Counted from the stretch's first letter, positions 2,858 to 39,375 are shown. The stretch is 64,000 nucleotides of DNA from Tachypleus tridentatus (GCF_004210375.1 NC_134837.1:252489964-252553963), one strand, 5' to 3'. The notes: generated by a model not told the origin, from the letters alone. Translations and numbers: made by a program.

Positions 2858-2995
2858 TAGCCCAAGAGCCGGCAATCGACGGTGATGACTAGCTGCCTTT
2901 CTTATGGTCTACCATTTTAAAAATAGGGACAACTAGCACAGATAACCCTCGTGTAGATTTGCGTGAAAATTCAAAAACAAATAAACAATCAAACC
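2858..2995 (+). mobile_element. SINE-A 3' half (5'-truncated)
   Basis: GTAGCCCAAGAGCCGGC..GGTGATGACTAGCTGCCTTTC..AAAATAGGGACAACTAGCACAGATAACCCTCGTGTAGATTTGCGTGAAAATTCAAAAACAAATAAAC. Confidence 0.8.
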
Positions 2996-3063
2996 AAAAT
3001 CAAAATTAATATTTATTTGCCTCCTCAGATCATAAAGTATACGTTTACTAATAAGTTGAAATA

Positions 3064-3317
3064 GGGCTCGGCATGGCCAGGCGGGTTAAGGCGTTCAACT
3101 CGTAATCTGAGAGTCGCAGGTTCGAATCCTCATTGCACCAAACATGCTCGACCTTTCAGCCGTGGGGGCGTTATAATGGTACTGTCAATCCTACAAGAGT
3201 TGGCAGTTGGTGGTGATGACTAGCTGCCTTCCCTCTAGTCTTACACTGTTAAATTAAGGACGACTAACGCAGATAGCCCTCGTGTAGCTTTGCGTGAAAT
3301 TCAAAAAACAAAACAAG
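3064..3317 (+). mobile_element. SINE-A copy with internal deletion
   Basis: Head GGGCTCGGCATGGCCAGGCGGGTTAAGGCG..GGTTCGAATCC, full tail ..GTGTAGCTTTGCGTGAAATTCAAAAAACAAAACAAG. It lacks the CACTATTCGTTGGTAAAAGAGTAGCCC segment. Confidence 0.85.
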
Positions 3318-4023: not shown

Positions 4024-4240
4024 GGTCGCCGTCACACTGAATATGCTCGCTCCTTTGACCCTAGGGAGCATTATAATATTATAGTCAATCACACTATTCG
4101 TTGGTAAAAAAATAATCTAATTGTTGGCGGTGGGTGTTGATGACTAGTTGTCTTCCCTATTAGTGTTTCATTCCTAAATTAGGGGCGGCCAGCGCAGATA
4201 GCCCTCGTGTAGCTTTATGTGAAGTTCAATAAAACAAACA
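4024..4240 (+). mobile_element. SINE-A copy, diverged and 5'-degenerate
   Basis: GGTCGCCGTCACACTGAATATGCTCGC..ATTATAATATTATAGTCAATCACACTATTCGTTGGTAAAAA..TTGGCGGTGGGTGTTGATGACTAGTTGTCTTCCC..GCGCAGATAGCCCTCGTGTAGCTTTATGTGAAGTTCAATAAAACAAAC. Confidence 0.7.
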
Positions 4241-6235
4241 GATTCATTATCAATCACAGCATCCTCCCAGTTCAAGGGGTCAACGAATATGGTTCTCCGT
4301 TGTTTTGTATTCCTCACTGGATGTGTCAGCTTTCCCAGTTCAAACTTTCCATTTTTAGCCTGCTCGTCTTTCTTCGATTTTACGCATCAGAATCTCAGCA
4401 GACCTTCCCTTAAATTATCGCACCTTCCGTTTCTTACATCCAGCAGTTGTATTGTATGTTCGTTACATCCTTATGTTTTTTTTCTGTGTGTACGTTCGTC
4501 ATCATGAGTTTATGACACTACGTTTCGAATATTTCCAACTCATTTTGTTTCAGGTGAAACCACTCCCGTAGAGTAGAACAGACTACACGTGGCATTTTAG
4601 TCGTCTCTTCTTCAGTTCAAGTTTTAATTTGTCTCCCGTGAAATTCGTTGGAATTAAAGGATGCTGTTTTCACATTCCTATCTTTTGCTTTCATAATTGT
4701 CGCTTTTTCTGATACTGTTTCTAATTAAATAAACCTCTCCACATTCTTACCGTTTACTCTGATGCATATTCTGAGTGCTTCACCAGATTGTGAAACGGAT
4801 ATATCTCTAGCTTTGTTGCCATGTATTTTAAGCCTATTGTCTTGCTGTTATCAACTTATCTCTTAAGTAACCTTTGGATATATTTCTTGTACTCACTCCT
4901 AAGTGTTGCATCATCACCATATCTCTTATTACAGACTCCAATATCCTTCATCCCATCAATAATTAATCATTACTATCCGCTCTGCTTTGACAGCACCATC
5001 TTTTTCATATACGTCTCTTGTAACTGCCTACTAACTACTTAGTTCTCTGTCAGCTCAAACTGCCGCTTCTTTTAGGATTCACTTATCTGCTTGAGCCAAC
5101 TCAGAGTCTACTGTGGGATCTCCGTTACCTTCTCAAGATCAATCATCAAGTACTTTTTCAGAGCTTATGAACCATACGTACAGCTTTATTTGAGCTTCTA
5201 TGTTTTTGGTTTTTTTTTTTTACCTAACATCCTATGTGCGATTATGCTTATTCACATGCTTCGACTTCTTCTAAATTCGTTTTGAGTACGTAACAGCTCA
5301 GTGCCAACCTTATGTTTCGGTTTTAAAATACTTTATAGACGTGTGCGATCAAGCTGGTAATCCTTTACAGTTTGTATCTTAAGTTTCTTGAGTAACAACA
5401 CGGAAAAAATCTTTAAAAGTATATTAGCCTCGCTTGTAAAGTGAGACACAAACTGCGGTCAGATATTCAATTGATGCAGATTTTAATTTCCTTTAACCCT
5501 TTCGCTGGAAACTTGTATATGCGCAAGTTTTCCATTTCTAATTCTTCTTTTTCCAAAACTGTAGAGCTTTTGTTAATTAGTTTTATTCATTCCGTAGCGA
5601 ATCCAGTTTCCCTGTCATAGTTATAAACGTTTTTCACATACGCTGTCACACCCACTGGTGGCTACGTAGTATGTCTAAAGAATTAAAACACTAAAAACCA
5701 AGTTTCGATACCTTGGTGTGCACGGAACAGATATTCCATTATATAGCCTTATGTTTAATAACAATAAAAAACGCTCCACTCAACTGTCTTTAATATATCC
5801 AATTCCAAAAGGTTTTTGTATGCCTCTATTTGTAACGGCACCACTGGAAGACAGAGCAGTTTTCATATTCTACTGCGCATGTCACTCGTACCAGATGTTG
5901 TCCCACAATTTTTGCTCAGACATTCGTATCTTGCATGTCTACAAAAACATTATTTACTCTCCTATAACTTTGCCACTTTCTTGACACTTGTTTTCTGAAT
6001 GTCATCATTCATCCAGATTTGGTTTTTAACTTTTGTTTTCCTCCTATTTCCTACTTCCTGTTACACCTTAGCCCATTCATCTTCAGCAGCCATGTTTGCA
6101 AGTTCTTTTATTAGCATTTCAAGGATATAATAGTTAGTCCTTGGCTTACTAGTTATTCCACCAAAGAAGCTATTCCTCTGATATGTTCAATTATTCCAAA
6201 AAAAAAAAAAGTAATATCGTGTAGTCCTAGTTTGA

Positions 6236-6428
6236 CATGATCAGGTGATTAGAGTGCCCGACTCGCAATCTCAGCGTCGGGGATTCAAATCTTCGTCACC
6301 GAACATGCTCGCCCTTTCAGCCATGTAAACGTTATAATGTCACTATTCGTTGAAAAAAAAAAGTAGATCTAGTCTTACACTGCTAAATTATGGACGGCAG
6401 ATAATCCTCGTTTAGTTTTACACGTTAT
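6236..6428 (+). mobile_element. SINE-A copy, degenerate with internal deletions
   Basis: CATGATCAGGTGATTAGAGTGCCCGACTCGCAATCTCAGCGTCGGGGATTCAAATC..GAACATGCTCGCCCTTTCAGCCATG..TAGTCTTACACTGCTAAATTATGGACGGCAGATAATCCTCGTTTAG. Confidence 0.65.
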
Positions 6429-7299
6429 TCAGAACAATCCAAGTGATCTGTCACCGTCATCACCAAACTACTCTTTGAGCCAATCGTGACAATGCTAGAA
6501 AATAAGAGTTACTTTGCTTAATTACTGACAAATATTTGCTATTTTCTTCGGGTACACTTTTCAAACGAATTGAAAATGTTAGAAGAAACTTCGTGTACTC
6601 GTGGTTTCAGAATTTCTTATTTGCTTTCAGAATGGAGGAGCTGTGTTTGATAACATATCTGCTTTTGAAGCGTCACGTTTGGTAGTTTTAATTGGAGTAA
6701 ACAAAGAGGTAAGTTGAGTTTTTTATACTAAACTCCCTCCCATTTTAAATACACTTCTCACCTAAGTTGTTTTTAACATCGTAAGAAGGTTTAAGAAATT
6801 ATTTCTTCCAACATTTCAAAGACGTTTTTTTTACAGCTTAAAAATCGTTCATTCCAGAAACTAGTGTTACTTATTCACTTTAATATTAAACCATTATTTC
6901 GTAAAAAGATTCACTTCAAAAATATGAGAACTCTTTTAAACCATTTTACTCTTCGGTTGCTTTAATTTTTGCCAATTAGAACTAACACGAAATCTAATAT
7001 GAATTTGCAGGCGGTAGAGATGTACATTAACATATCGAGTTGTAAATAAACAGAGGTTAAGTACTTTACATAGAAATGATTTTGGTGCCTTACCGCGTCG
7101 TTACAGTCTAAGTCGCTAAGTTTAGTTTTGCTCCATCTGATGACCATGTATTTTGATAATAGCCATGCAGCGTAGTTCTATTGTCAGATGTTTCGTCATA
7201 AGTTTGTCATGGCCAGCACATTATCTTAATGAATGCTTTCCACAGTACATCTAGTATGAAAGTATCAAGGTTTCCAGTGTTCTTTGCAACAGTCCTATT

Positions 7300-7402: not shown

Positions 7403-8686
7403 CCTATTACACAGAAATCCAAAGGCGATTTGACCAATTTGTTTCTTATGGAATGTCATGAATTCCTGTTTTATTCTCTAACCGCTTTAAGTATTTGTCA
7501 GTTGAACGAGAGGTATTATTGGAAGTCTTATCTTGGTACATCCATTCGTATCTGTTGGTCGCTTTCCTAGACAGAGATTGTTTTCTTGATTAGGCCGAGT
7601 ACAGTTTATCGAGGACGTGGACGACTTTTGCCACTGACTTTGAGATTGTAGATTCTCATCTGTAACAAAACGTCACACTTTGCTTACCACAGTTGAATAC
7701 GACTTGTTGCAGATCTCTTTCTTGATAGTCCTGGTGTTCCAATGATACATATGTATATTCCTTTATCGTTTATAATCATGAAGAACACGGAGTATCCTGC
7801 CTTGAAAATTCTAAACTCCCTATCTGAACACATTTTTATGATCCGGGTATATGAAAATTTGACTTCGGAACTGACTGTTAAACACCTTTATTCAAAAGCG
7901 AGTAATTTTCGATGACGCCTTCTACCTAAGAAACGTCAAACATTCAAAATGTGGTTCTGAAAACCATGCTAATTGACCGAGTTTTATATTGGTTATGGTT
8001 GTCACATGACTGGCAGATTTGCATATTCAATATTATTTTAATATAACGTACAGCTACCCTCTTCACAGTTTGATTAAAAGTTATCTGAAGAGTGGATTTT
8101 AGTCTTTCAAGGAAGGAAGAAGAAAATGCATTTACCTAGCGTAAGGGTAAGAACTATTATAGAATTTGGCATTTTTATGGCTCAGGTATAACAATATCTA
8201 ATTCTGAGTTACTGACTAAAGCAAAATAAACCTGTTAACAGCATCTGCTTTATCCAGCTTTGAACCAAATATGGGATTAACTATCACTCTCATAACGCAG
8301 CTGTCCCGCCCTCCATTGCTCAACAGTGAATATAAAGACCTATAATCTGATATGTAAGTATTGCTGTTTGAAAGTTTTTTTTCTTTTGGCAATTTGACAA
8401 AAGTAATTTTTTTATTGCATGGAATTTGAATTCACCTGATAAAAGGGATGACGTCATTTATTTTCGATACTGAGATTGTTTTTAACATTTTAGTTTAAAA
8501 TACTAGAATATTTTTGGACTCAAACAAATTAATGTGTCTTTTAACTTACGTAAATATTTATACTGTCCTTATTTGTCTTTCATGTTTCCAACAGGAACTT
8601 CCGTGCAGTCTAAAATAAAACGATGTGAATTACAAGTGATTTCTACAAGCGGTTATAAAGATTAACGTTCGTTGCCAAAGCTAATT

Positions 8687-11077
8687 ATGACCAATGAAAG
8701 TTTCCTGGCACGGACTCTGTCCCAGGTTAATCTAGTATCGCCCCCTACTGCATTCTTTTCAAATCGTAACAGCCACACGTCCATGCGGAACAGCAGTGTA
8801 TCTTTATTAGCCAACTTCTCGTCTATGTCCAACTGGTTGACTACAACAGTGTCCATAGGGTCAGAGGTCAAACTGTTGGTAGAAGAAACTGGATCAAATC
8901 TTCTGGATGGTTTGTCGCTCGTGTGTTTAAATAAGAGAAATGGTGAAAACTATACAGTTCATTGTGATAACGCCACAAACAGTACATCGGTAGCTGTTAA
9001 TACTCCTGTCGCACCATATTCTCTGTGGCTAACAATATTCATAGCTGTCTCCATTGGTCTGTGTATTATACTTACTGTTGCTGGAAACATACTCGTATTA
9101 ATGGCTTTTGCAGTAGAACGAGCCATTCGACAGCCAAGTAACTATTTTATAGTCTCCTTAGCTGTATCAGATCTTCTTATTGGAATGGTATCGATGCCAT
9201 TCTACGCTGTTTATGTATTAGTTGGTCGGTGGGATCTCGGACCCATTCCTTGTGACCTGTGGTTAGCCACTGACCACACCGTTTGTCTCGTTTCTATTTA
9301 CACCGTACTTCTTATAACCATCGACAGGTACTGCTCTGTTAACATCGCCGCCAAATACCGAAACTGGCGAACTAGGACCAAGGTAATATTCATGGTAGCA
9401 GTAACGTGGATTATTCCTTTCCTCGTATTCTTCATTAGCATTATGGGATGGGAACATTTTATTGGTTATAGAGATCTAAACCCTGGAGAGTGCGCTGTAC
9501 AGTTTCTTAAAGACCCAGTCTTCAACACTTCACTGATTTTTGGTTATTTTTACGCCACGTTAGTAGTGCTCTTTGTTCTTTATGGAGGAATATACAAAAC
9601 AGCCAGTGACATGCAGAAGAAGTCAGCTGCGAAACAAAAGAAAATGCAGAGTCTAGTGGCCATGGGGAAATCGTCAGGAAAACGTAAAACGATTGGTTTA
9701 TCTAAAACACAGAGTACTTTACTCTGTCAAGACAAACCCAAAACAGCCCAACCAGGAAATTTAGATACTACAACATCTGTAAACCAAATTAATCCCCAGA
9801 ACTCCCAGGCTGTAGGGAGTGGGAATTGTCCATCCAACCAGAAAACCTTGTTAAATAAAACTGGAAATGCTGAAGCTCTCGTCTTCTCGGAGAAGAAAGA
9901 CGCATCTGATCCGGACCGGTCCAGTAGCCCAATGTTTGATTCTGATGAGGAAAATTATCAAAAGCCGGAGAAGTCCTTAAAGCCAGCAAAAACTCCTAAA
10001 GATAAAAGTGCACCTAAGGCTACCCCTCTTAATAATAAACGAGAAAAAATAAAAAACACTAATATCGTCAGATCTCCAATTACCGACGAACAGATCCTCA
10101 AATTAGTTCCTCCGCCTTCGGCTCTACAAAGGAATCTTCCTTTGGATTCAGGTAAAGATACAATCAGAAATGAGAGCGTTATGGATACTGAAAAGATTAT
10201 GTTCCCTTCGGATGCACCATCTGTAGACTTGAAGATCACGACAACAGCTGATAACAATAAAATAATAAATACTATTCCTTCCGACGAAAGAAATGTTATT
10301 TCCAACGAAAAACCGCATCCTCCCAAAACACTCAACTTGACTTCGGTAAGAGAGGAACAACCATTAGAATATCTAGAAACCTCTGACATGAAGTATATTG
10401 ATCAAGAAAGTTCTGTGGCCATGCCCTCTCCAGCCAGTGAAACAGTCCTCACAGATAATCCACAACCAACAGAAGATACACCTGAGCCACGAACCAAGGA
10501 CAAATCAGTAAATACTGACCCTGTGATTTTTTATGACTTTCCTTCACTTCAACCCGAACAATGTAAACAGAAGAACAGCATGGTAAGCATGCAGGTAGAG
10601 AATATATCTGAATCCAAGATGGTAACGCGCGTAGTGAAACCGGAGGAGATGCAGCCAATCGTGAACCATGATTGTGACCAACCAAACACTACGGTTGCTT
10701 CTACAAAAGACTTTACGACGACTCGTTCGAAAACACAATTCGCGACAGTCCTCGGAAGGAAAGGGAAAAAGTACAAAAAGCACACGAAAGAAAAGAGGCA
10801 AAAATCCAAATCCGAAAATCGTGCTAGGAAAGCACTGAGGACTATCTCCTTTATTTTAGGAGCATTTGTTTTGTGTTGGACGCCATATCACATATGTGCA
10901 CTGGTAGAGGGATTCTGCTCCGATCCTGCCGGCTGTGTTAACTATCACTTTTTCTATTTTACGTATTTCTTGTGCTACGCTAACAGTCCCATTAACCCTT
11001 TTTGTTACGCTTTAATGAATCAGCAGTTTAAGAAGACATTTTACCGTCTTCTTCGTGGCGATTTTCATCGAACATAG
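8687..11077 (+). CDS. Class A (rhodopsin-like) biogenic-amine GPCR, muscarinic-acetylcholine-receptor-like; single exon, 796 aa
   Basis: Continuous ORF; first ATG at 8687 (the supplied ORF at 8672 starts at TTG). Seven hydrophobic helices; Asp2.50 (LAVSDLL); Asp3.32 (WLATDHT, the amine counter-ion); DRY (ITIDRYCSV); CWxP (FVLCWTPY) in TM6; NPxxY (NPFCYAL) in TM7. N-terminus of ~115 aa with 8 N-x-S/T sites. Lys/Ser/Thr/Pro-rich ICL3 of ~400 aa (about nt 9600-10830), typical of muscarinic-type receptors. The short antisense ORFs inside it are artefacts. Confidence 0.85.
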
Positions 11078-11147
11078 CCAGTTGGATTCATCATTCTGGA
11101 TCGTTACCTTCGTCATACCACCTTGCTACTCCTTCTTGGTGTTCTAC

Positions 11148-11265
11148 AGTGGCACAGCGCTATGTCTGCGGAATTACAACTCCAGAAACCGGTTCTCGAT
11201 ACCCGTGGTGAGAAGTGCACGTATAGCCCATCGTGTAGCTTTATGCTGAGCTTCAAACAAATAAA
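11148..11265 (+). mobile_element. SINE-C copy in the presumptive GPCR 3' UTR
   Basis: GGCACAGCGCTATGTCTGCGGAATTACAACTCCAGAAACCGGTTCTCGATACCCGTGGTGAGAAGTGCACGTATAGCCCATCGTGTAGCTTTATGCTGAGCTTCAAACAAATAAAAAAC. Starts 70 bp after the GPCR stop codon. Confidence 0.75.
11260..11265 (+). promoter_or_regulatory. AATAAA poly(A) signal candidate, contributed by the SINE-C tail, ~185 bp after the GPCR stop
   Basis: CAAACAAATAAAAAAC. This is the first canonical hexamer downstream of the CDS. Confidence 0.3.
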
Positions 11266-12214
11266 AAACTTATAGGTATGGTTGTATCCTACGGTAAAAT
11301 GTTTTTAGATTAGATAAAAGTCTTTTTTTCCCTACACAATGCAAATATTAACGTTACTTAGTTGTCCCAATAATGTAATTCTAAGAATACGATTAAGTGC
11401 GAATACACTTCGTCAACACACAACTGTTAAACATAACGTATAATCTTAAATAAACCATTCCTTGTTCTAAGAGTTTCAGAAGCCTGGTTCTAATGGTGTT
11501 CTATAAATTTCACCAGATATTCGTTAATTTAGGTATGAGTATTTGTTGCACACGTAGAAAGTGAAGAATTTATTTCTGCATTGTATACAACTGTTTATGT
11601 CATCTCTAAATCAATGTACGAATGTAGCTCTGAAATGGAGTGTTTCAAGCTAATAGTAGTTTCTAAACGTACACGGTTACGGTGGCTGTGTTTTTTACAA
11701 TAGTATTGTTCTAGTAATATTATGTGAAACGTTTTACCAGTTACAGTTGTATTGTGATTAGCTTTATTACTCGTAATATCATCATGTACTTATCAAGTTT
11801 AATTGGGATTGTGAGAAGCTTTATTGATTTTCAGCATTATCAGAATCAGGAAACATGTGTTCAAATAAGAATAATAAATAGTAAATATATGAAGTTTTAA
11901 TCCTCAACTACATTTGTAATTTCTCACTCTCTTACTGACGTAGTTAAGGAATAAAACGTTTTTCATTGGTGCTGCCTGATAATAAATAATCATAAATATA
12001 TAACAACACTGATACTTTAACCCCTTGAGTTCCTAAATTCATGCACCTTACAATGTCTCAAATAATTGAAAAAGTAAATACATATTTCTTGATGATGAGA
12101 AACTCACTTCAATTAAAAATGTATCTTAGAATGGCATACCAGTCTCACATGTAATTATTTATATATTTCATTACATTTAGAAAAAAGAAACTATCATGAA
12201 TCAAACATAATAAA

Positions 12215-13781: not shown

Positions 13782-14060
13782 GGCCGGCATGTCCAGGTGG
13801 TTAAGGCAAAAGACTCGTTATCCTAGGGTCGCGGGTTCGAATCCTCGTCACACCAAACATGCTCGCCCTTTCAGCCGTGGCAACGTTATAATGTTACGGT
13901 CAATCCCCCTATTCGTTAGTAAAAGAGTAACCCAAGAGTTGGTGGTGGGTGGTGATGACTAGCTGCCTTCCCTCTAGTCTTACACTGCTAAATTAGGGAC
14001 GGCTAGGACAGATAACCCTCGTGTAGCTTTGCGCGAAATTCAAAACAAAACAAATCAAAC
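13782..14060 (+). mobile_element. SINE-A full-length copy
   Basis: GGCCGGCATGTCCAGGTGGTTAAGGC..GGTTCGAATCCTCGTCACACCAAACATGCTCGCCCTTTCAGCCGTGG..GGTGGTGATGACTAGCTGCCTTCCCTCTAGTCTTACACTGCTAAATTAGGGACGGCTAGGACAGATAACCCTCGTGTAGCTTTGCGCGAAATTCAAAACAAAACAAATCAAACC. Confidence 0.9.
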
Positions 14061-17960: not shown

Positions 17961-18968
17961 TTCACAAGACTTGTGATTTTATAAGAGATAATTTTCGATT
18001 TCTTCCGGTAACATTAATTAATGTAAGTAAAACAAAACTATATTTGTAACCAAAACAATAACAGTTTATATGCTTGGTCATGCATGTTGATTATAAGATA
18101 ATTAAATGTGAATATAACTGACAAATTAAATGAGCGAAACCTGCAATTAATATAAGTTATTCTAACCTACAGAACTGCAATGAAAATATGAATTTTTATG
18201 ACGCATCGCCTCTGTTGAAGTGGCTAGACCCATCCGTGACAAATTTAAAAACAACAGAGGTTCTTAAGAATCGTTCTACACCAGTTTGAGAAAGTCACTT
18301 TTGAACGTCATTTCCTGGATCATTAGAACTGTCATAATACCACGTGATCTATCGGTCGTTTCAAATGCACAGTGTTGTGCTTTTAACATCACCCCAATAT
18401 TGTCTACCACTGTTCATTAAATCTCACGCTGATGTACAGTAGAGATCTAGGGTTTTACTCTTTTACCAACATTTTATTAATTACATATCATTTATCATCC
18501 AGTAAATGATAGCAAATATTCATATACATACATATATGTTCAGTAATAGATTTGAATTTCCACTACTTCAAAGAAAAACAACATAAAACATCTTGAAAGA
18601 TACATCATAGAGAGTTGGTTCTACGAAGATTTCAACCTACGATTTTATAGTAACGGTAATTAATTCTGTTTGGGACGAGTAAGAGTAAACGTATTATCAC
18701 GTATTGTATTTTGTTAAGTGTATTTCATATAAAAAAATACACGTTATAATTTAGTGGGCAATGGTATTTGAATGTTTTGTGTACCTGTCTTAATATAAAA
18801 TATTTTTCACATAAAAAATTAATTTATCCGTGTGTTTAATTCTTTTGTTGGATTTCGCACAATATTGTACGAGAGAATTATCACCTCTAGTCAGTTTTTT
18901 ATTTTGAATGATGGATTACAGGAAACATAGTTACTGAAAAGCAGGCAGAATCAGCTCTTGCCAGACTT

Positions 18969-19235
18969 GTTTGTTTGTTTTGGAATTTCGCACAAAGCTA
19001 CTCGAGGGTTATCTGTGCTAGCCGTCTCTAGTGTAAGACTAGAGGGAAGGCAGCTAGTCATCACCACCCACCGCCAACTCTTGGGCTACTCTTTTACCAA
19101 CGAATAGTAGGATTGAACATCACATTATAACGCCCCCACGGCTGGGAGGGCGAGCATGTTTAGCGCGACGCGGGCTCGAACCCGCGACCCTCGGATTACG
19201 AGTCGCATGCCTTACGCGCTAGGCCATGCCGGGCC
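18969..19235 (-). mobile_element. SINE-A near-full-length copy (reverse) with a small internal deletion
   Basis: Plus strand reads GTTTGTTTGTTTTGGAATTTCGCACAAAGCTACTCGAGGGTTATCTGTGCTAGCCGTC..AGAGGGAAGGCAGCTAGTCATCACCACCCACCGCCAACTCTTGGGCTACTCTTTTACCAACGAATAG..GGATTCGAACCCGCGACCCTCGGATTACGAGTCGCATGCCTTACGCGCTAGGCCATGCCGGGCC. Confidence 0.9.
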
Positions 19236-22159: not shown

Positions 22160-22265
22160 AGGGTTTTCGATACTGGTGGTGGACAGAGCACAGATAGCCC
22201 ATTATGTAGCTTTGTGGACAGAGCACAGATAGCCCATTATGTAGCTTTGTGCCAAACAAAAGCAA
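22160..22265 (+). mobile_element. SINE-C 3' half with an internal 34-bp tandem duplication, head-to-head with the previous copy
   Basis: GGTTTTCGATACTGGTGGTGGACAGAGCACAGATAGCCCATTATGTAGCTTTGTG appears twice in tandem. Confidence 0.7.
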
Positions 22266-29796: not shown

Positions 29797-29915
29797 ACCC
29801 AGTGGCACAGCAGTTTGTCTGTGGGCTCACACCGCTAGAAACCGGGTGTTCGATTCCTGTGGTGGGTAGAGCGCAGATACACCATTGTGTAGATTTGTGC
29901 TTAATTCCTAACAAA
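29797..29915 (+). mobile_element. SINE-C copy
   Basis: CCAGTGGCACAGCAGTTTGTCTGTGGGCTCACACCGCTAGAAACCGGGTGTTCGATTCCTGTGGTGGGTAGAGCGCAGATACACCATTGTGTAGATTTGTGCTTAATTCCTAACAAAC. Confidence 0.8.
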
Positions 29916-30770: not shown

Positions 30771-32394
30771 TACAGTCATGTGAAAAAGTTAGGACACCCT
30801 ATGAAAGCCTGCGTATTTTTGTAACATTTTTGGATATATAGATATTTAATCTCAATTTCAACAATACTAAGATATTATAGGACTATAACTAAACAATTAA
30901 AACTGAAGAAAAGACTTTTCAATATCTTCTGTAAATGTGATTCTACAAAAATGCATATTCTAACTGAGGAAAAGTTAGGACACCATACCCCCTAATAGCT
31001 AGTGTTACCCCCTTTAGATGAAGTAGCTGCAGTTAGACGCTTCTTGTAGCCATCTACCAGTCTCTGTCATCGGTCTGAAGAAAGTTTGCCCCACTCCTCA
31101 ATGCAGAATTCTTTCAGTTGTGAGATGTTTGAGGGGTTTCTTGCATGTACAGCCCGTTTCAAGTCACCCCACAGCATCTCAATGGGATTAAGATCTGGGC
31201 TTTGACTCGGCCATTCCAGGACTCTCCATTTCTTAGTTTTAGCCAGTCCTTGGTGGATTTACTGGTATGCTTTGGGTCAATGTCGTGCTGCAGAGTCCAG
31301 TTCCGCTTCAGTTTTAATTTTCGTACAGATGGTCTCACATGATCCTCAAGCACCCTCTGATATACAGTAGAATTCATGGTGGATTCTATGATTGTGAGCT
31401 GTCCAGGTCCTGCTGCAGCAAAGCAGCCCCAAACCATGACACTTCCACCTCCATGCTTCACAGTTGGTATGAGGTTCTTTTCCTGGAGTGCTGTATTTGG
31501 TTTACGCCAAACATGTCCTCTGTTCTGGTGTCCAAATATTTCAATTTTGGACTCATCTGTCCAAAGAACAATATTCCAGAAGTCCTGGTCTTTGTCTACA
31601 TTCTCTCTGGCAAACTTCAGTCTGGCCTTGATGTTTCTGTTAGAGAGCAAAGCTTTCCTCCTTGCACACCTCCCATGCAAGTTAAACTTGTGCAGTCTCT
31701 TTCTGATTGTAGAGGCATGCACTTTCACATCAACAGTAGCCAGAGCCTGCTGTAGGTCCCGTGATGACATGTTAGGGTGTTTGGAGACCTCTTTTAGCAT
31801 CTTGCGGTCTGCTCTCGGGGTGAACTTGATTGACGACCAGACCTGAGCATGCTGGCAGTTGTTTTGAAAACCCTCCAAATGTTGACTATTTTCCGGACAG
31901 TTGAATGACATATTTTCAAAATATTTTGGGATCTTTTAAAATCCCTTACCAGACTCATAAGCTGCTACAATTTTCTTTCTGAAGGCCTCAGACAGCTCTT
32001 TTGCTTTCATCATGATGCTCACTCTCACTTCAACAGTCAGGAGCACACCAAACTAAATGTCTGAGGTTTAAATAGGGCAAGCCTCATTCACAATGATGAG
32101 TAGCAATCTTCTAATCACGTGCACCTGGTGTGATACACCTGTGTGTGAGTTGAGCCATTTTAAGTGGGTATAAATGTGGGGTGTCCTAACTTTTTCCTCA
32201 GTTAGAATATGCATTTTTGTAGAATTACATTTACAGAAGATCTTGAAAAGTCTTTTCTTCAGTTTTAATTGTTTAGTTATATTACTTTAATCTCTCAGTA
32301 TTGTTAAAATTGAGATTATATATCTATATATCCAAAAATGTTACAAAAATACACAGGCTTTCATAGGGTGTCCCAACTTTTCCACATGACTGTA
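30771..32394 (-). mobile_element. Tc1/mariner element, Sleeping-Beauty-like IR/DR type, 1624 bp, TA-flanked
   Basis: Terminal inverted repeats of ~220 bp. Left end TACAGTCATGTGAAAAAGTTAGGACACCCTATGAAAGCCTG.. (30771), right end ..CAGGCTTTCATAGGGTGTCCCAACTTTTCCACATGACTGTA (32394). An internal sub-repeat GTTAGGACACC lies ~190 bp in on each side. A transposase frame sits between the repeats on the minus strand. Confidence 0.9.
31159..32013 (-). pseudogene. Tc1-family DD34E transposase, decayed (one in-frame TAA after residue 25, a C-terminal frameshift, and a further TGA)
   Basis: Minus-strand translation MMKAKELSEAFRKKIVAAYESGKGF*..MSFNC..VLWTDESKIEIFGH..PTVKHGGGSVMVWGCFAA..LQHDIDPKHTSK aligns along its length with Sleeping Beauty/Tc1 transposases (HTH, DDE residues). 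The remaining C-terminus (..RVLEWPSQSPDLNPIEMLWGDLKRAVHARNPSNISQLKEFCIEEWGKLSSDR*QRLVDGYKKRL) is in another frame (31030-31240). Confidence 0.85.
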
Positions 32395-39242: not shown

Positions 39243-39375
39243 CCCCCAATGGCTCAGCGGTATGTCTGCGGACTTCCAACGCTAAAACCGGGTTTCGATA
39301 CCCGTGGTGGGCATTGTGGGCACAGATAGCCCATTGTGTAGCTTTCTGCTTAATTCAAAACAACAACAACAACAA
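39243..39375 (+). mobile_element. SINE-C full-length copy followed by (AAC)n
   Basis: CCCCCAATGGCTCAGCGGTATGTCTGCGGACTTCCAACGCTAAAACCGGGTTTCGATACCCGTGGTGGGCATTGTGGGCACAGATAGCCCATTGTGTAGCTTTCTGCTTAATTCAAAACAACAACAACAACAAG. Confidence 0.85.

Follow-up and report, generated by a model that had tools for sequence, protein, structure and literature searches.

The muscarinic acetylcholine receptors (mAChRs) of arthropods fall into A-, B- and C-types (PMC7203735, summarizing Collin 2013, Ren 2015 and Xia 2016). The A-types are similar to the vertebrate M1-M5 receptors, signal through Gq/11 and are antagonized by atropine and quinuclidinyl benzilate (QNB). The B-types respond to acetylcholine (ACh), are insensitive to the classical antagonists and have been reported to couple to Gi/o, and those of insects are about 1000-fold less sensitive to muscarine (PMC7203735). 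A B-type receptor has also been characterized in the tick Ixodes ricinus (Ir-mAChR-B, GenBank PP921913; Nat Commun 2026, PMC13022164); it responds to muscarine, and to ACh with a half-maximal effective concentration of 0.68 uM (PMC13022164). Here we describe a locus of the horseshoe crab Tachypleus tridentatus, contained in a stretch of 64,000 nucleotides (GCF_004210375.1 NC_134837.1:252489964-252553963) that we refer to as the window and from whose first letter all positions are counted. An intronless gene at 8687-11077 very probably encodes a B-type (GAR-2-like) mAChR of this species. The gene and the parts of its product are listed below, with transmembrane helices abbreviated TM, the third intracellular loop ICL3, and the ratio of nonsynonymous to synonymous substitution rates between Tachypleus and the horseshoe crab Limulus dN/dS.

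8687-11077, + strand: complete intronless coding sequence (CDS) assigned to a B-type mAChR; 796 codons plus TAG, product identical to XP_076337102.1 / XP_076337103.1.
8687-9022, + strand: N-terminal ectodomain, amino acids 1-112, with six sequons, placed by sequon count and alignment; dN/dS 0.68.
9023-9601, + strand: TM1-TM5 core, amino acids 113-305, placed by alignment; dN/dS 0.018; 83% identity to the Ixodes B-type and 71% to the Tribolium B-type.
9602-10822, + strand: ICL3, amino acids 306-712 (407 residues), recognized by composition and conserved islands; dN/dS 0.23.
10823-11074, + strand: TM6-TM7 and a short C-terminal tail, amino acids 713-796, placed by alignment; dN/dS 0.017 from TM6 to the C-terminus.

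The open frame extends from 8672 to 11077 on the + strand, with its first ATG at 8687 and a TAG stop at 11075-11077, and has a product of 796 amino acids. An in-frame stop lies nine codons 5' of this ATG, whose context (A at -3) is the same in Limulus. A frame of 801 codons in DNA of 37% GC is far beyond chance, and together with a nucleotide identity to Limulus of 87% across the frame, against 72-77% in the flanks, it identifies a real gene. The orthologous Limulus locus (L001) carries an uninterrupted frame of 851 codons whose product is 88% identical to the Tachypleus receptor. The initial annotation, made from the sequence of the window, had described a single exon for 796 amino acids with an ICL3 of about 400; the one uninterrupted frame, and its likewise uninterrupted counterpart in Limulus, bear this out. 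In a database homologue search the translation matched RefSeq entries XP_076337102.1 and XP_076337103.1 at 100% identity over the full length, both named 'muscarinic acetylcholine receptor gar-2-like [Tachypleus tridentatus]'; RefSeq already lists the gene, under an essentially correct name. The dN/dS for the entire CDS is 0.19, and the N-terminus is the fastest-evolving part of the protein. Since the value in the ICL3 is 0.23, this 407-residue loop is, as judged from the comparison of the two species, translated and under purifying selection.

The protein is a member of the class A (rhodopsin-like) G protein-coupled receptors (GPCRs). The Pfam family 7tm_1 (PF00001) is matched with an E-value of 1.1e-58 in two stretches on either side of the ICL3, and a hydropathy scan recovered the TM1-5 and TM6 segments. 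The landmarks recognized in the initial annotation (D2.50, D3.32, DRY, CWxP and NPxxY) are all in place, together with N1.50 and a cysteine pair linking position 3.25 and the second extracellular loop (ECL2). The TM1-TM5 core contains N134 (1.50), D162 (2.50), the C189 (3.25)/C269 (ECL2) pair, the counter-ion D196 (3.32), H197 (3.33), C200 (3.36), L201 (3.37), DRY at 213-215, W241 (4.50) and F248 (4.57), followed in TM5 by N280 (5.39), L283 (5.42), I284 (5.43), Y287 (5.46) and F288 (5.47). TM6-TM7 contribute CWTP at 730-733, with W731 (6.48) and P733 (6.50), and then Y734 (6.51), H735 (6.52), Y760 (7.39), C763 (7.42), Y764 (7.43) and NPFCY at 770-774.

Six N-x-S/T glycosylation sequons precede TM1 (N3, N35, N43, N88, N95 and N98), not the eight originally counted. 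The ectodomain is long, at about 112 residues, close to the initial estimate of about 115; the length is not unusual for a B-type receptor, however, as similarly long N-termini are found in B-type homologues and that of the tick receptor is considerably longer than the N-terminus of human M1 (PMC13022164). The ICL3 is basic and rich in serine and threonine (K+R 15.7%, S+T 19.9%, isoelectric point 9.2) and includes islands conserved across arthropods, namely SKTQSTLL (339-346) and an acidic serine cluster (about 411-423). The cluster, with the pattern SSPxF[DE]SD[DE][DE], is present in 114 of the 120 best database relatives of the receptor, the set used for all homologue counts below (labels P0001 and so on), and its S413, S414, P415, F417, S419 and D420 are invariant in the alignment. 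This cluster is likely a phosphorylation or arrestin-type regulatory site.

Sequence search of the PDB ranked the muscarinic receptors M3, M1, M5, M4 and M2 at the top, with E-values from 4e-65 to about 1e-53 (4e-65 for M3, about 3e-60 for M2), ahead of histamine H1 (7e-51), 5-HT1A (1.5e-47), H3 (1e-43) and alpha2A (3e-41). With D196 present and the muscarinic structures outranking H1, 5-HT1A and alpha2A, the muscarinic-type Asp3.32 architecture initially proposed is upheld. The comparison with annotated receptors that had been recommended at that stage came out as muscarinic-type, not monoaminergic or peptidergic, and the ligand class, then held to be unassignable from sequence alone, can be assigned via homology as that of a B-type (GAR-2-like) mAChR. 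Names among the 120 homologues are overwhelmingly muscarinic or GAR-like, and the set includes the cloned Tribolium 'type B short variant' (P0070). Two Ixodes proteins (P0013 and P0014) carry W77-Q78, H160, C163 and I247, a residue numbering that, on alignment, exactly matches the characterized Ir-mAChR-B. Across TM1-TM5 the horseshoe-crab receptor groups with experimentally characterized B-types: its identity is 83% with the Ixodes orthologue of Ir-mAChR-B and 71% with mAChR-B of Tribolium, compared with 27-35% for the A-type and nematode sequences, M3 and M5. In a neighbor-joining tree of the same region the split between B-types and the A-type, vertebrate and nematode sequences was recovered in 200 of 200 bootstraps, with the receptor on the B side and not among the A-type or vertebrate receptors. 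The A-type, nematode and vertebrate sequences for this tree were fetched with a bait modeled on Drosophila mAChR-A, and only database sequences returned by that search were used.

The 'gar-2-like' label invites comparison with the nematode receptors GAR-1 and GAR-2, which form an invertebrate-specific clade apart from the vertebrate-like GAR-3 (PMC10731000). Neither is among the 120 best homologues listed, and 'gar-2-like' is the name given by NCBI; the only nematode sequence in the tree (Diploscapter, obtained with the A-type bait) falls on the A-type/vertebrate side.

It is very improbable that the protein only looks muscarinic and has some other biogenic amine (octopamine, dopamine, serotonin or histamine) as its ligand. 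D3.32 is common to all aminergic receptors, and the canonical muscarinic Y3.33 and N6.52 are both replaced by histidine, which would fit such a receptor; the muscarinic Y6.51, Y7.39, C7.42 and Y7.43 are nevertheless retained, and TM5 has L, I and Y in place of serines at 5.42, 5.43 and 5.46. The lead of the muscarinic structures over H1, 5-HT1 and alpha2A amounts to 14 to 24 orders of magnitude in E-value, and the tick orthologue and the Tribolium and Drosophila B-types all respond to ACh (PMC13022164, PMC7203735). A few homologues (P0027, P0071, P0096, P0098 and P0117) are named '5-hydroxytryptamine receptor 2A-like' or 'dopamine receptor 2' despite a B-type pocket. Such names could be taken to favor an amine other than ACh, but these proteins have identical pocket motifs and sit among the B-type matches, and their names are probably misnomers of an automated pipeline.

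For the ligand-binding site we used as comparison list the 16 classical orthosteric residues of M2 and M3 that form the QNB/atropine pocket: D3.32, Y3.33, S3.36, N3.37, W4.57, T5.39, T5.42, A5.43, A5.46, F5.47, W6.48, Y6.51, N6.52, Y7.39, C7.42 and Y7.43. The Tachypleus receptor has, in the same order, D, H, C, L, F, N, L, I, Y, F, W, Y, H, Y, C and Y, so that the fully conserved pocket of M1-M5 and the A-types is absent and seven of the 16 residues are retained. Fold, class A landmarks and a long ICL3 are common to the vertebrate M1-M5/A-type receptors and the Tachypleus protein, as are D3.32, F5.47, W6.48, Y6.51, Y7.39, C7.42 and Y7.43; the nine changes are Y3.33H, S3.36C, N3.37L, W4.57F, T5.39N, T5.42L, A5.43I, A5.46Y and N6.52H, and P5.50 is replaced by threonine. 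The A-type sequences in the alignment keep the motif DY(V/L)xSN, where x is A, N or M, and in TM5 the pattern TxGTAxAAF. A receptor of A-type or vertebrate kind (M1-M5-like), blocked by atropine in the classical manner, is thus hardly credible: although the best matches among solved structures are M3, M1 and M5, and NCBI names Limulus paralogues 'M2-like', 'M3-like' and 'M5-like', the retention of seven in 16 pocket residues, a core identity of 27-35% against 71-83% to the B-types, and the unanimous bootstrap separation of the two groups all speak against it.

By contrast with the A-type pattern, H197, C200, I284 and H735 reproduce the B-type signature of C3.36, I5.43 and H6.52 together with the H3.33 of chelicerates. 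Across the homologue set C3.36 and L3.37 are universal, I5.43 and H6.52 near-universal, and the motif CWTPYH occurs in 119 of 120. Position 3.33 is histidine in 42 (41 chelicerate or unnamed sequences and one millipede) and tyrosine in 78 (insects and a shrimp), which marks His3.33 as the chelicerate and myriapod state and Tyr3.33 as the pancrustacean one.

The assignment of ligand, pharmacology, coupling and ICL3 function is carried over from the characterized relatives. In the proposed mechanism the quaternary ammonium of ACh would pair with D196 (3.32) inside an aromatic cage of W731 (6.48), Y734 (6.51), Y760 (7.39) and Y764 (7.43), and the bound agonist would drive the class A rearrangement through CWxP, DRY and NPxxY that leads to G protein activation. 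The pocket would depart from the vertebrate/A-type arrangement at H197, C200, L201, F248, the TM5 residues N280, L283, I284 and Y287, and H735. Tick mAChR-B differs from human M1 and from the tick A-type at four active-site residues, Y3.33H, S3.36C, A5.43I and N6.52H; when the four B-type residues were put into the tick A-type, antagonism by atropine was abolished, and the reverse swap in the tick B-type gave a broader agonist profile (PMC13022164). Because the Tachypleus receptor has the same four changes, which this mutagenesis ties to lost atropine antagonism and altered agonist selectivity, it is predicted to be sensitive to ACh, and probably to muscarine, and to be only poorly blocked by atropine and antagonists of the QNB type. 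The loose 'aminergic' or 'gar-2-like' label is thereby tightened to B-type mAChR, with a concrete prediction attached: a receptor that is ACh-responsive and, on account of H197, C200, I284 and H735, poorly blocked by atropine.

Coupling to Gi/o, as in the insect B-types, is the most likely outcome by analogy, while the coupling may be promiscuous (Gq/11 as well as Gs), a finding reported for the tick protein, which coupled to Gq/11 in cells of the Chinese hamster ovary (CHO) line and to Gs, with partial Gi, in human embryonic kidney (HEK) cells (PMC13022164). Several points weigh against reading the locus as a B-type mAChR with the properties of its relatives. The coupling of B-types is inconsistent between studies, being Gi/o in insects and Gq/11 and Gs with partial Gi in the tick. 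The horseshoe-crab receptor itself is known from sequence alone, and its affinity and agonist profile could differ from those of the insect B-types because H3.33 takes the place of a lid tyrosine. In addition, four positions at the junction of ICL3 and TM6, which we take to be the selectors between Gi and Gq in M2 and M3, read A-L-I-S, a mixed pattern; the junction is invariant among B-types and hence does not discriminate between modes of coupling.

Set beside its closest characterized relatives, the Tachypleus receptor is an ordinary member of a known gene family, characterized in insects and, in 2026, in a tick, and shows no departure from it. With Ir-mAChR-B it has in common the divergent pocket residues H3.33, C3.36, I5.43 and H6.52, a long disordered N-terminus, an ICL3 of about 400 residues or more, and a CDS that is intronless at the tick locus too; the 83% core identity is with the orthologue from I. 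pacificus. Beyond the conserved islands, by contrast, the tick protein is largely unlike that of Tachypleus in its ICL3 and N-terminus, and ticks apparently have one B-type gene among the matches listed, compared with about six paralogues in horseshoe crabs. The insect B-types (Drosophila and Tribolium; Collin 2013 and Ren 2015, via PMC7203735) are alike in a core identity of 71% (to Tribolium B), in C3.36, L3.37, I5.43 and H6.52, in an invariant segment leading into TM6, and in the ICL3 islands SKTQSTLL and SSPxFxSDEE. They differ at position 3.33, tyrosine in insects and shrimp against histidine in chelicerates and millipede, and the Tribolium gene is interrupted by introns, extends over 12.3 kb and produces long and short ICL3 splice forms, whereas the Tachypleus CDS is a single exon. 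The identification is of use for annotation and for studies of cholinergic signaling in Limulus or Tachypleus, and will be unsurprising to specialists.

The CDS is intronless at every chelicerate locus checked, and the gene range equals 3 x (aa + 1) in each of the five further Limulus paralogues as well as in a scorpion and a tick. As the feature is found in scorpion, tick and all Limulus paralogues, the intronless CDS is, on the evidence of these loci, the chelicerate norm and ancestral, and neither a product of recent retroposition nor a peculiarity of the Tachypleus locus. The horseshoe-crab matches form about six lineages (P0001/L001; P0002/P0003; P0004; P0005/P0007; P0010/P0011; P0015/P0023), all intact and intronless with nearly invariant TM cores, and this number is consistent with retention after the three rounds of horseshoe-crab whole-genome duplication (PMC7815833). 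That the gene is an intronless retrocopy or pseudogene in decay, or one of many redundant duplicates, as its intronless CDS, the transposon debris around the locus and at least five other paralogues in the genome might suggest, is extremely unlikely given a frame intact in both Tachypleus and Limulus, a dN/dS of 0.02 in the TM regions, the ancestral nature of the intronless CDS and a conserved upstream region.

The Limulus RefSeq model P0006 (574 amino acids) omits the middle of the ICL3, about 278 residues corresponding to 222 in Tachypleus. An internal intron of the 'exitron' kind was considered for this gap and rejected: the Limulus genomic frame is continuous and the splice sites are weak, with a poor donor (A|GTGCAT) and an acceptor (CCAG|AT) that is without a pyrimidine tract and whose AG is replaced in Tachypleus (CCGG). 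In the Limulus ICL3 (L001 11605-11846) there are five in-frame tandem units of 48 nt, of which Tachypleus has one (about 10337-10384). The omission in P0006 is probably, from the genomic sequence, an annotation artefact around this five-fold coding minisatellite.

The 3' flank of the gene contains a short interspersed element (SINE) and candidate polyadenylation (poly(A)) signals.

11147-11266, + strand: putatively tRNA-derived SINE copy of about 120 bp, starting 70 nt past the stop, with A-box-like TGGCACAGCG, B-box-like GGTTCTCGATACC and an (A/C)-rich tail.
11260-11265, + strand: first canonical AATAAA after the stop, in the A-rich tail of the SINE; by motif, a candidate proximal poly(A) signal.
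11873-11878, + strand: first AATAAA to have a positional counterpart in the Limulus flank (aligned with L001 13265); candidate ancestral poly(A) signal.

The SINE begins 70 bp after the stop codon and holds the first AATAAA, just as the initial annotation had it. This copy is about 15% diverged from the consensus of its family, which in the 64 kb comprises five full copies and fragments with 84-89% identity to the consensus; the further full copies are at 29800-29901, 39247-39363, 44040-43922 (- strand) and 45662-45549 (- strand), and fragments lie at 22162-22213 and 4198-4229. In the consensus, TGGCACAGCGG resembles an A box, GGTTTCGATACC resembles a B box and the tail is of an (ACAA)n-like kind, giving a dispersed multi-copy element with RNA polymerase III A and B boxes and an A-rich tail. 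No tRNA or Rfam match was found in the window or the SINE with ARAGORN at default settings and Rfam at both the gathering threshold and a permissive E-value, and nucleotides 1-69 of the consensus yield a degenerate cloverleaf at a relaxed ARAGORN threshold only.

Alignment of the locus showed that Limulus lacks the 11147 copy at the orthologous position, and no clear target-site duplication was seen around it. A member of the same family is present in Limulus (L001 about 9650-9775) in reverse orientation, about 230 bp upstream of the Limulus ATG and flanked by a target-site duplication of about 10 bp (ATTTCGATAA / CTTTTGATAC); the empty site in Tachypleus, TTTTCGATAC (window about 8460-8470), matches this insertion. 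From these reciprocal filled and empty sites, the family is judged to be a genuine retroposon that was active after the Tachypleus/Limulus split, independently in both lineages, and the locus offers a clean pair of filled and empty sites for a putatively tRNA-derived SINE of horseshoe crabs.

tRNA-derived SINEs, such as mammalian B2 and Alu, supply poly(A) signals to host genes. The Tachypleus copy resembles these cases as a short, putatively tRNA-headed retroposon with an A-rich tail that lies in sense orientation in a 3' flank and carries AATAAA; it differs in that its signal is a candidate recognized in the genomic sequence, and in that the insertion is found only on the Tachypleus side of the split from Limulus. 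Polyadenylation of the mRNA at the SINE-borne hexamer at 11260, which would end the transcript in exapted SINE sequence with a 3' untranslated region (UTR) of about 200 nt, is a tentative reading that we consider rather less probable than the use of another signal. The hexamer is the first canonical one past the stop, and GT- and T-rich sequence follows 15-45 nt on (11278-11307, with ggtatggttgt and tgttttt) that is conserved, and almost identical, in Limulus. As the SINE is absent there, however, the Limulus orthologue must use another signal, and the AATAAA at 11873, which would imply a 3' UTR of about 0.8 kb, is position-conserved in both species; neuronal GPCR mRNAs, moreover, commonly carry long 3' UTRs. 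The SINE-derived 3' end of the initial annotation is thus, on the present sequence comparison, a possibility. A further AATAAA at 11449 is not conserved in Limulus. Conservation of the 3' flank was also considered as a guide to the extent of the UTR and rejected, since its 75% identity equals the non-coding background of 72-77%.

Three features were noted upstream of the CDS.

8575-8594, + strand: stretch rich in pyrimidines with CAG at its end (tttgtctttcatgtttccaacag|G); candidate acceptor of an intron in the 5' UTR, or an initiator (Inr)-like start region.
8449-8456, no strand assigned: palindromic octamer TGACGTCA resembling a cAMP response element (CRE), 238 nt upstream of the ATG; possible promoter element.
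8623-8628, + strand: start-stop upstream open reading frame (uORF), ATG TGA, 64 nt upstream of the main ATG.

The splice acceptor first proposed, at 6616-6629, amounts to a motif, and a better candidate lies at 8594: the site at 8590-8594 is fully preserved in the orthologue from Limulus, and analogous YYYCAG sites occur about 60-100 nt before the ATG in all six Limulus paralogues. The two XP accessions for one identical protein suggest transcript variants that differ only in their UTRs. Alternatively, the tract at 8575-8594 may be an Inr-like start downstream of an A/T-rich stretch and the CRE-like octamer, the reading as a CRE/TATA promoter and that as an acceptor being inseparable at the sequence level. 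The TGACGTCA octamer is also found at -116 in L008 and -110 in L009, which makes three occurrences among seven horseshoe-crab B-type loci examined; in the direct orthologue of Limulus the sequence is TAGCGTCA.

The start-stop uORF recurs as ATGTGA at -64 in the Limulus orthologue (L001 about 9937) and at -63 in paralogue L002 (about 2938), and as ATGTAA at -61 in L006 (about 1440); the upstream comparison of Limulus paralogues found none in L007, L008 and L009. Lineage-specific post-transcriptional regulation after the duplications, with the SINE supplying a proximal poly(A) site, and thereby a short-3'-UTR isoform absent in Limulus, and the uORF tuning translation, is a speculative and doubtful proposal. 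If it were true, the B-type paralogues would have been subfunctionalized by UTR evolution and not by changes in their almost invariant core.

Elsewhere in the window, an open reading frame (ORF) of 358 amino acids at 53743-54819 (+ strand) matches Pfam Acetyltransf_2 (arylamine N-acetyltransferase family; E-value 3.7e-10) and may be a second single-exon gene. ORFs at 31159-31911 (- strand) and 52412-52858 (+ strand) contain helix-turn-helix domains of Tc1/Tc3-type transposases, with E-values of 2e-21 and 1e-10 respectively, and are remnants of Tc1/mariner DNA transposons. The first 880 nucleotides (1-880) consist of a 32-bp tandem repeat, 27.5 copies with 95% matches, in which long ORFs arise spuriously in three frames. 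A second family of dispersed repeats, with members of about 110-270 bp, is present at 1921-2199, 3065-3316, 6236-6337, 13784-14054 and 18968-19235 of the window, and in Limulus L001 at 2980-3112, 4563-4673 and 5290-5562.

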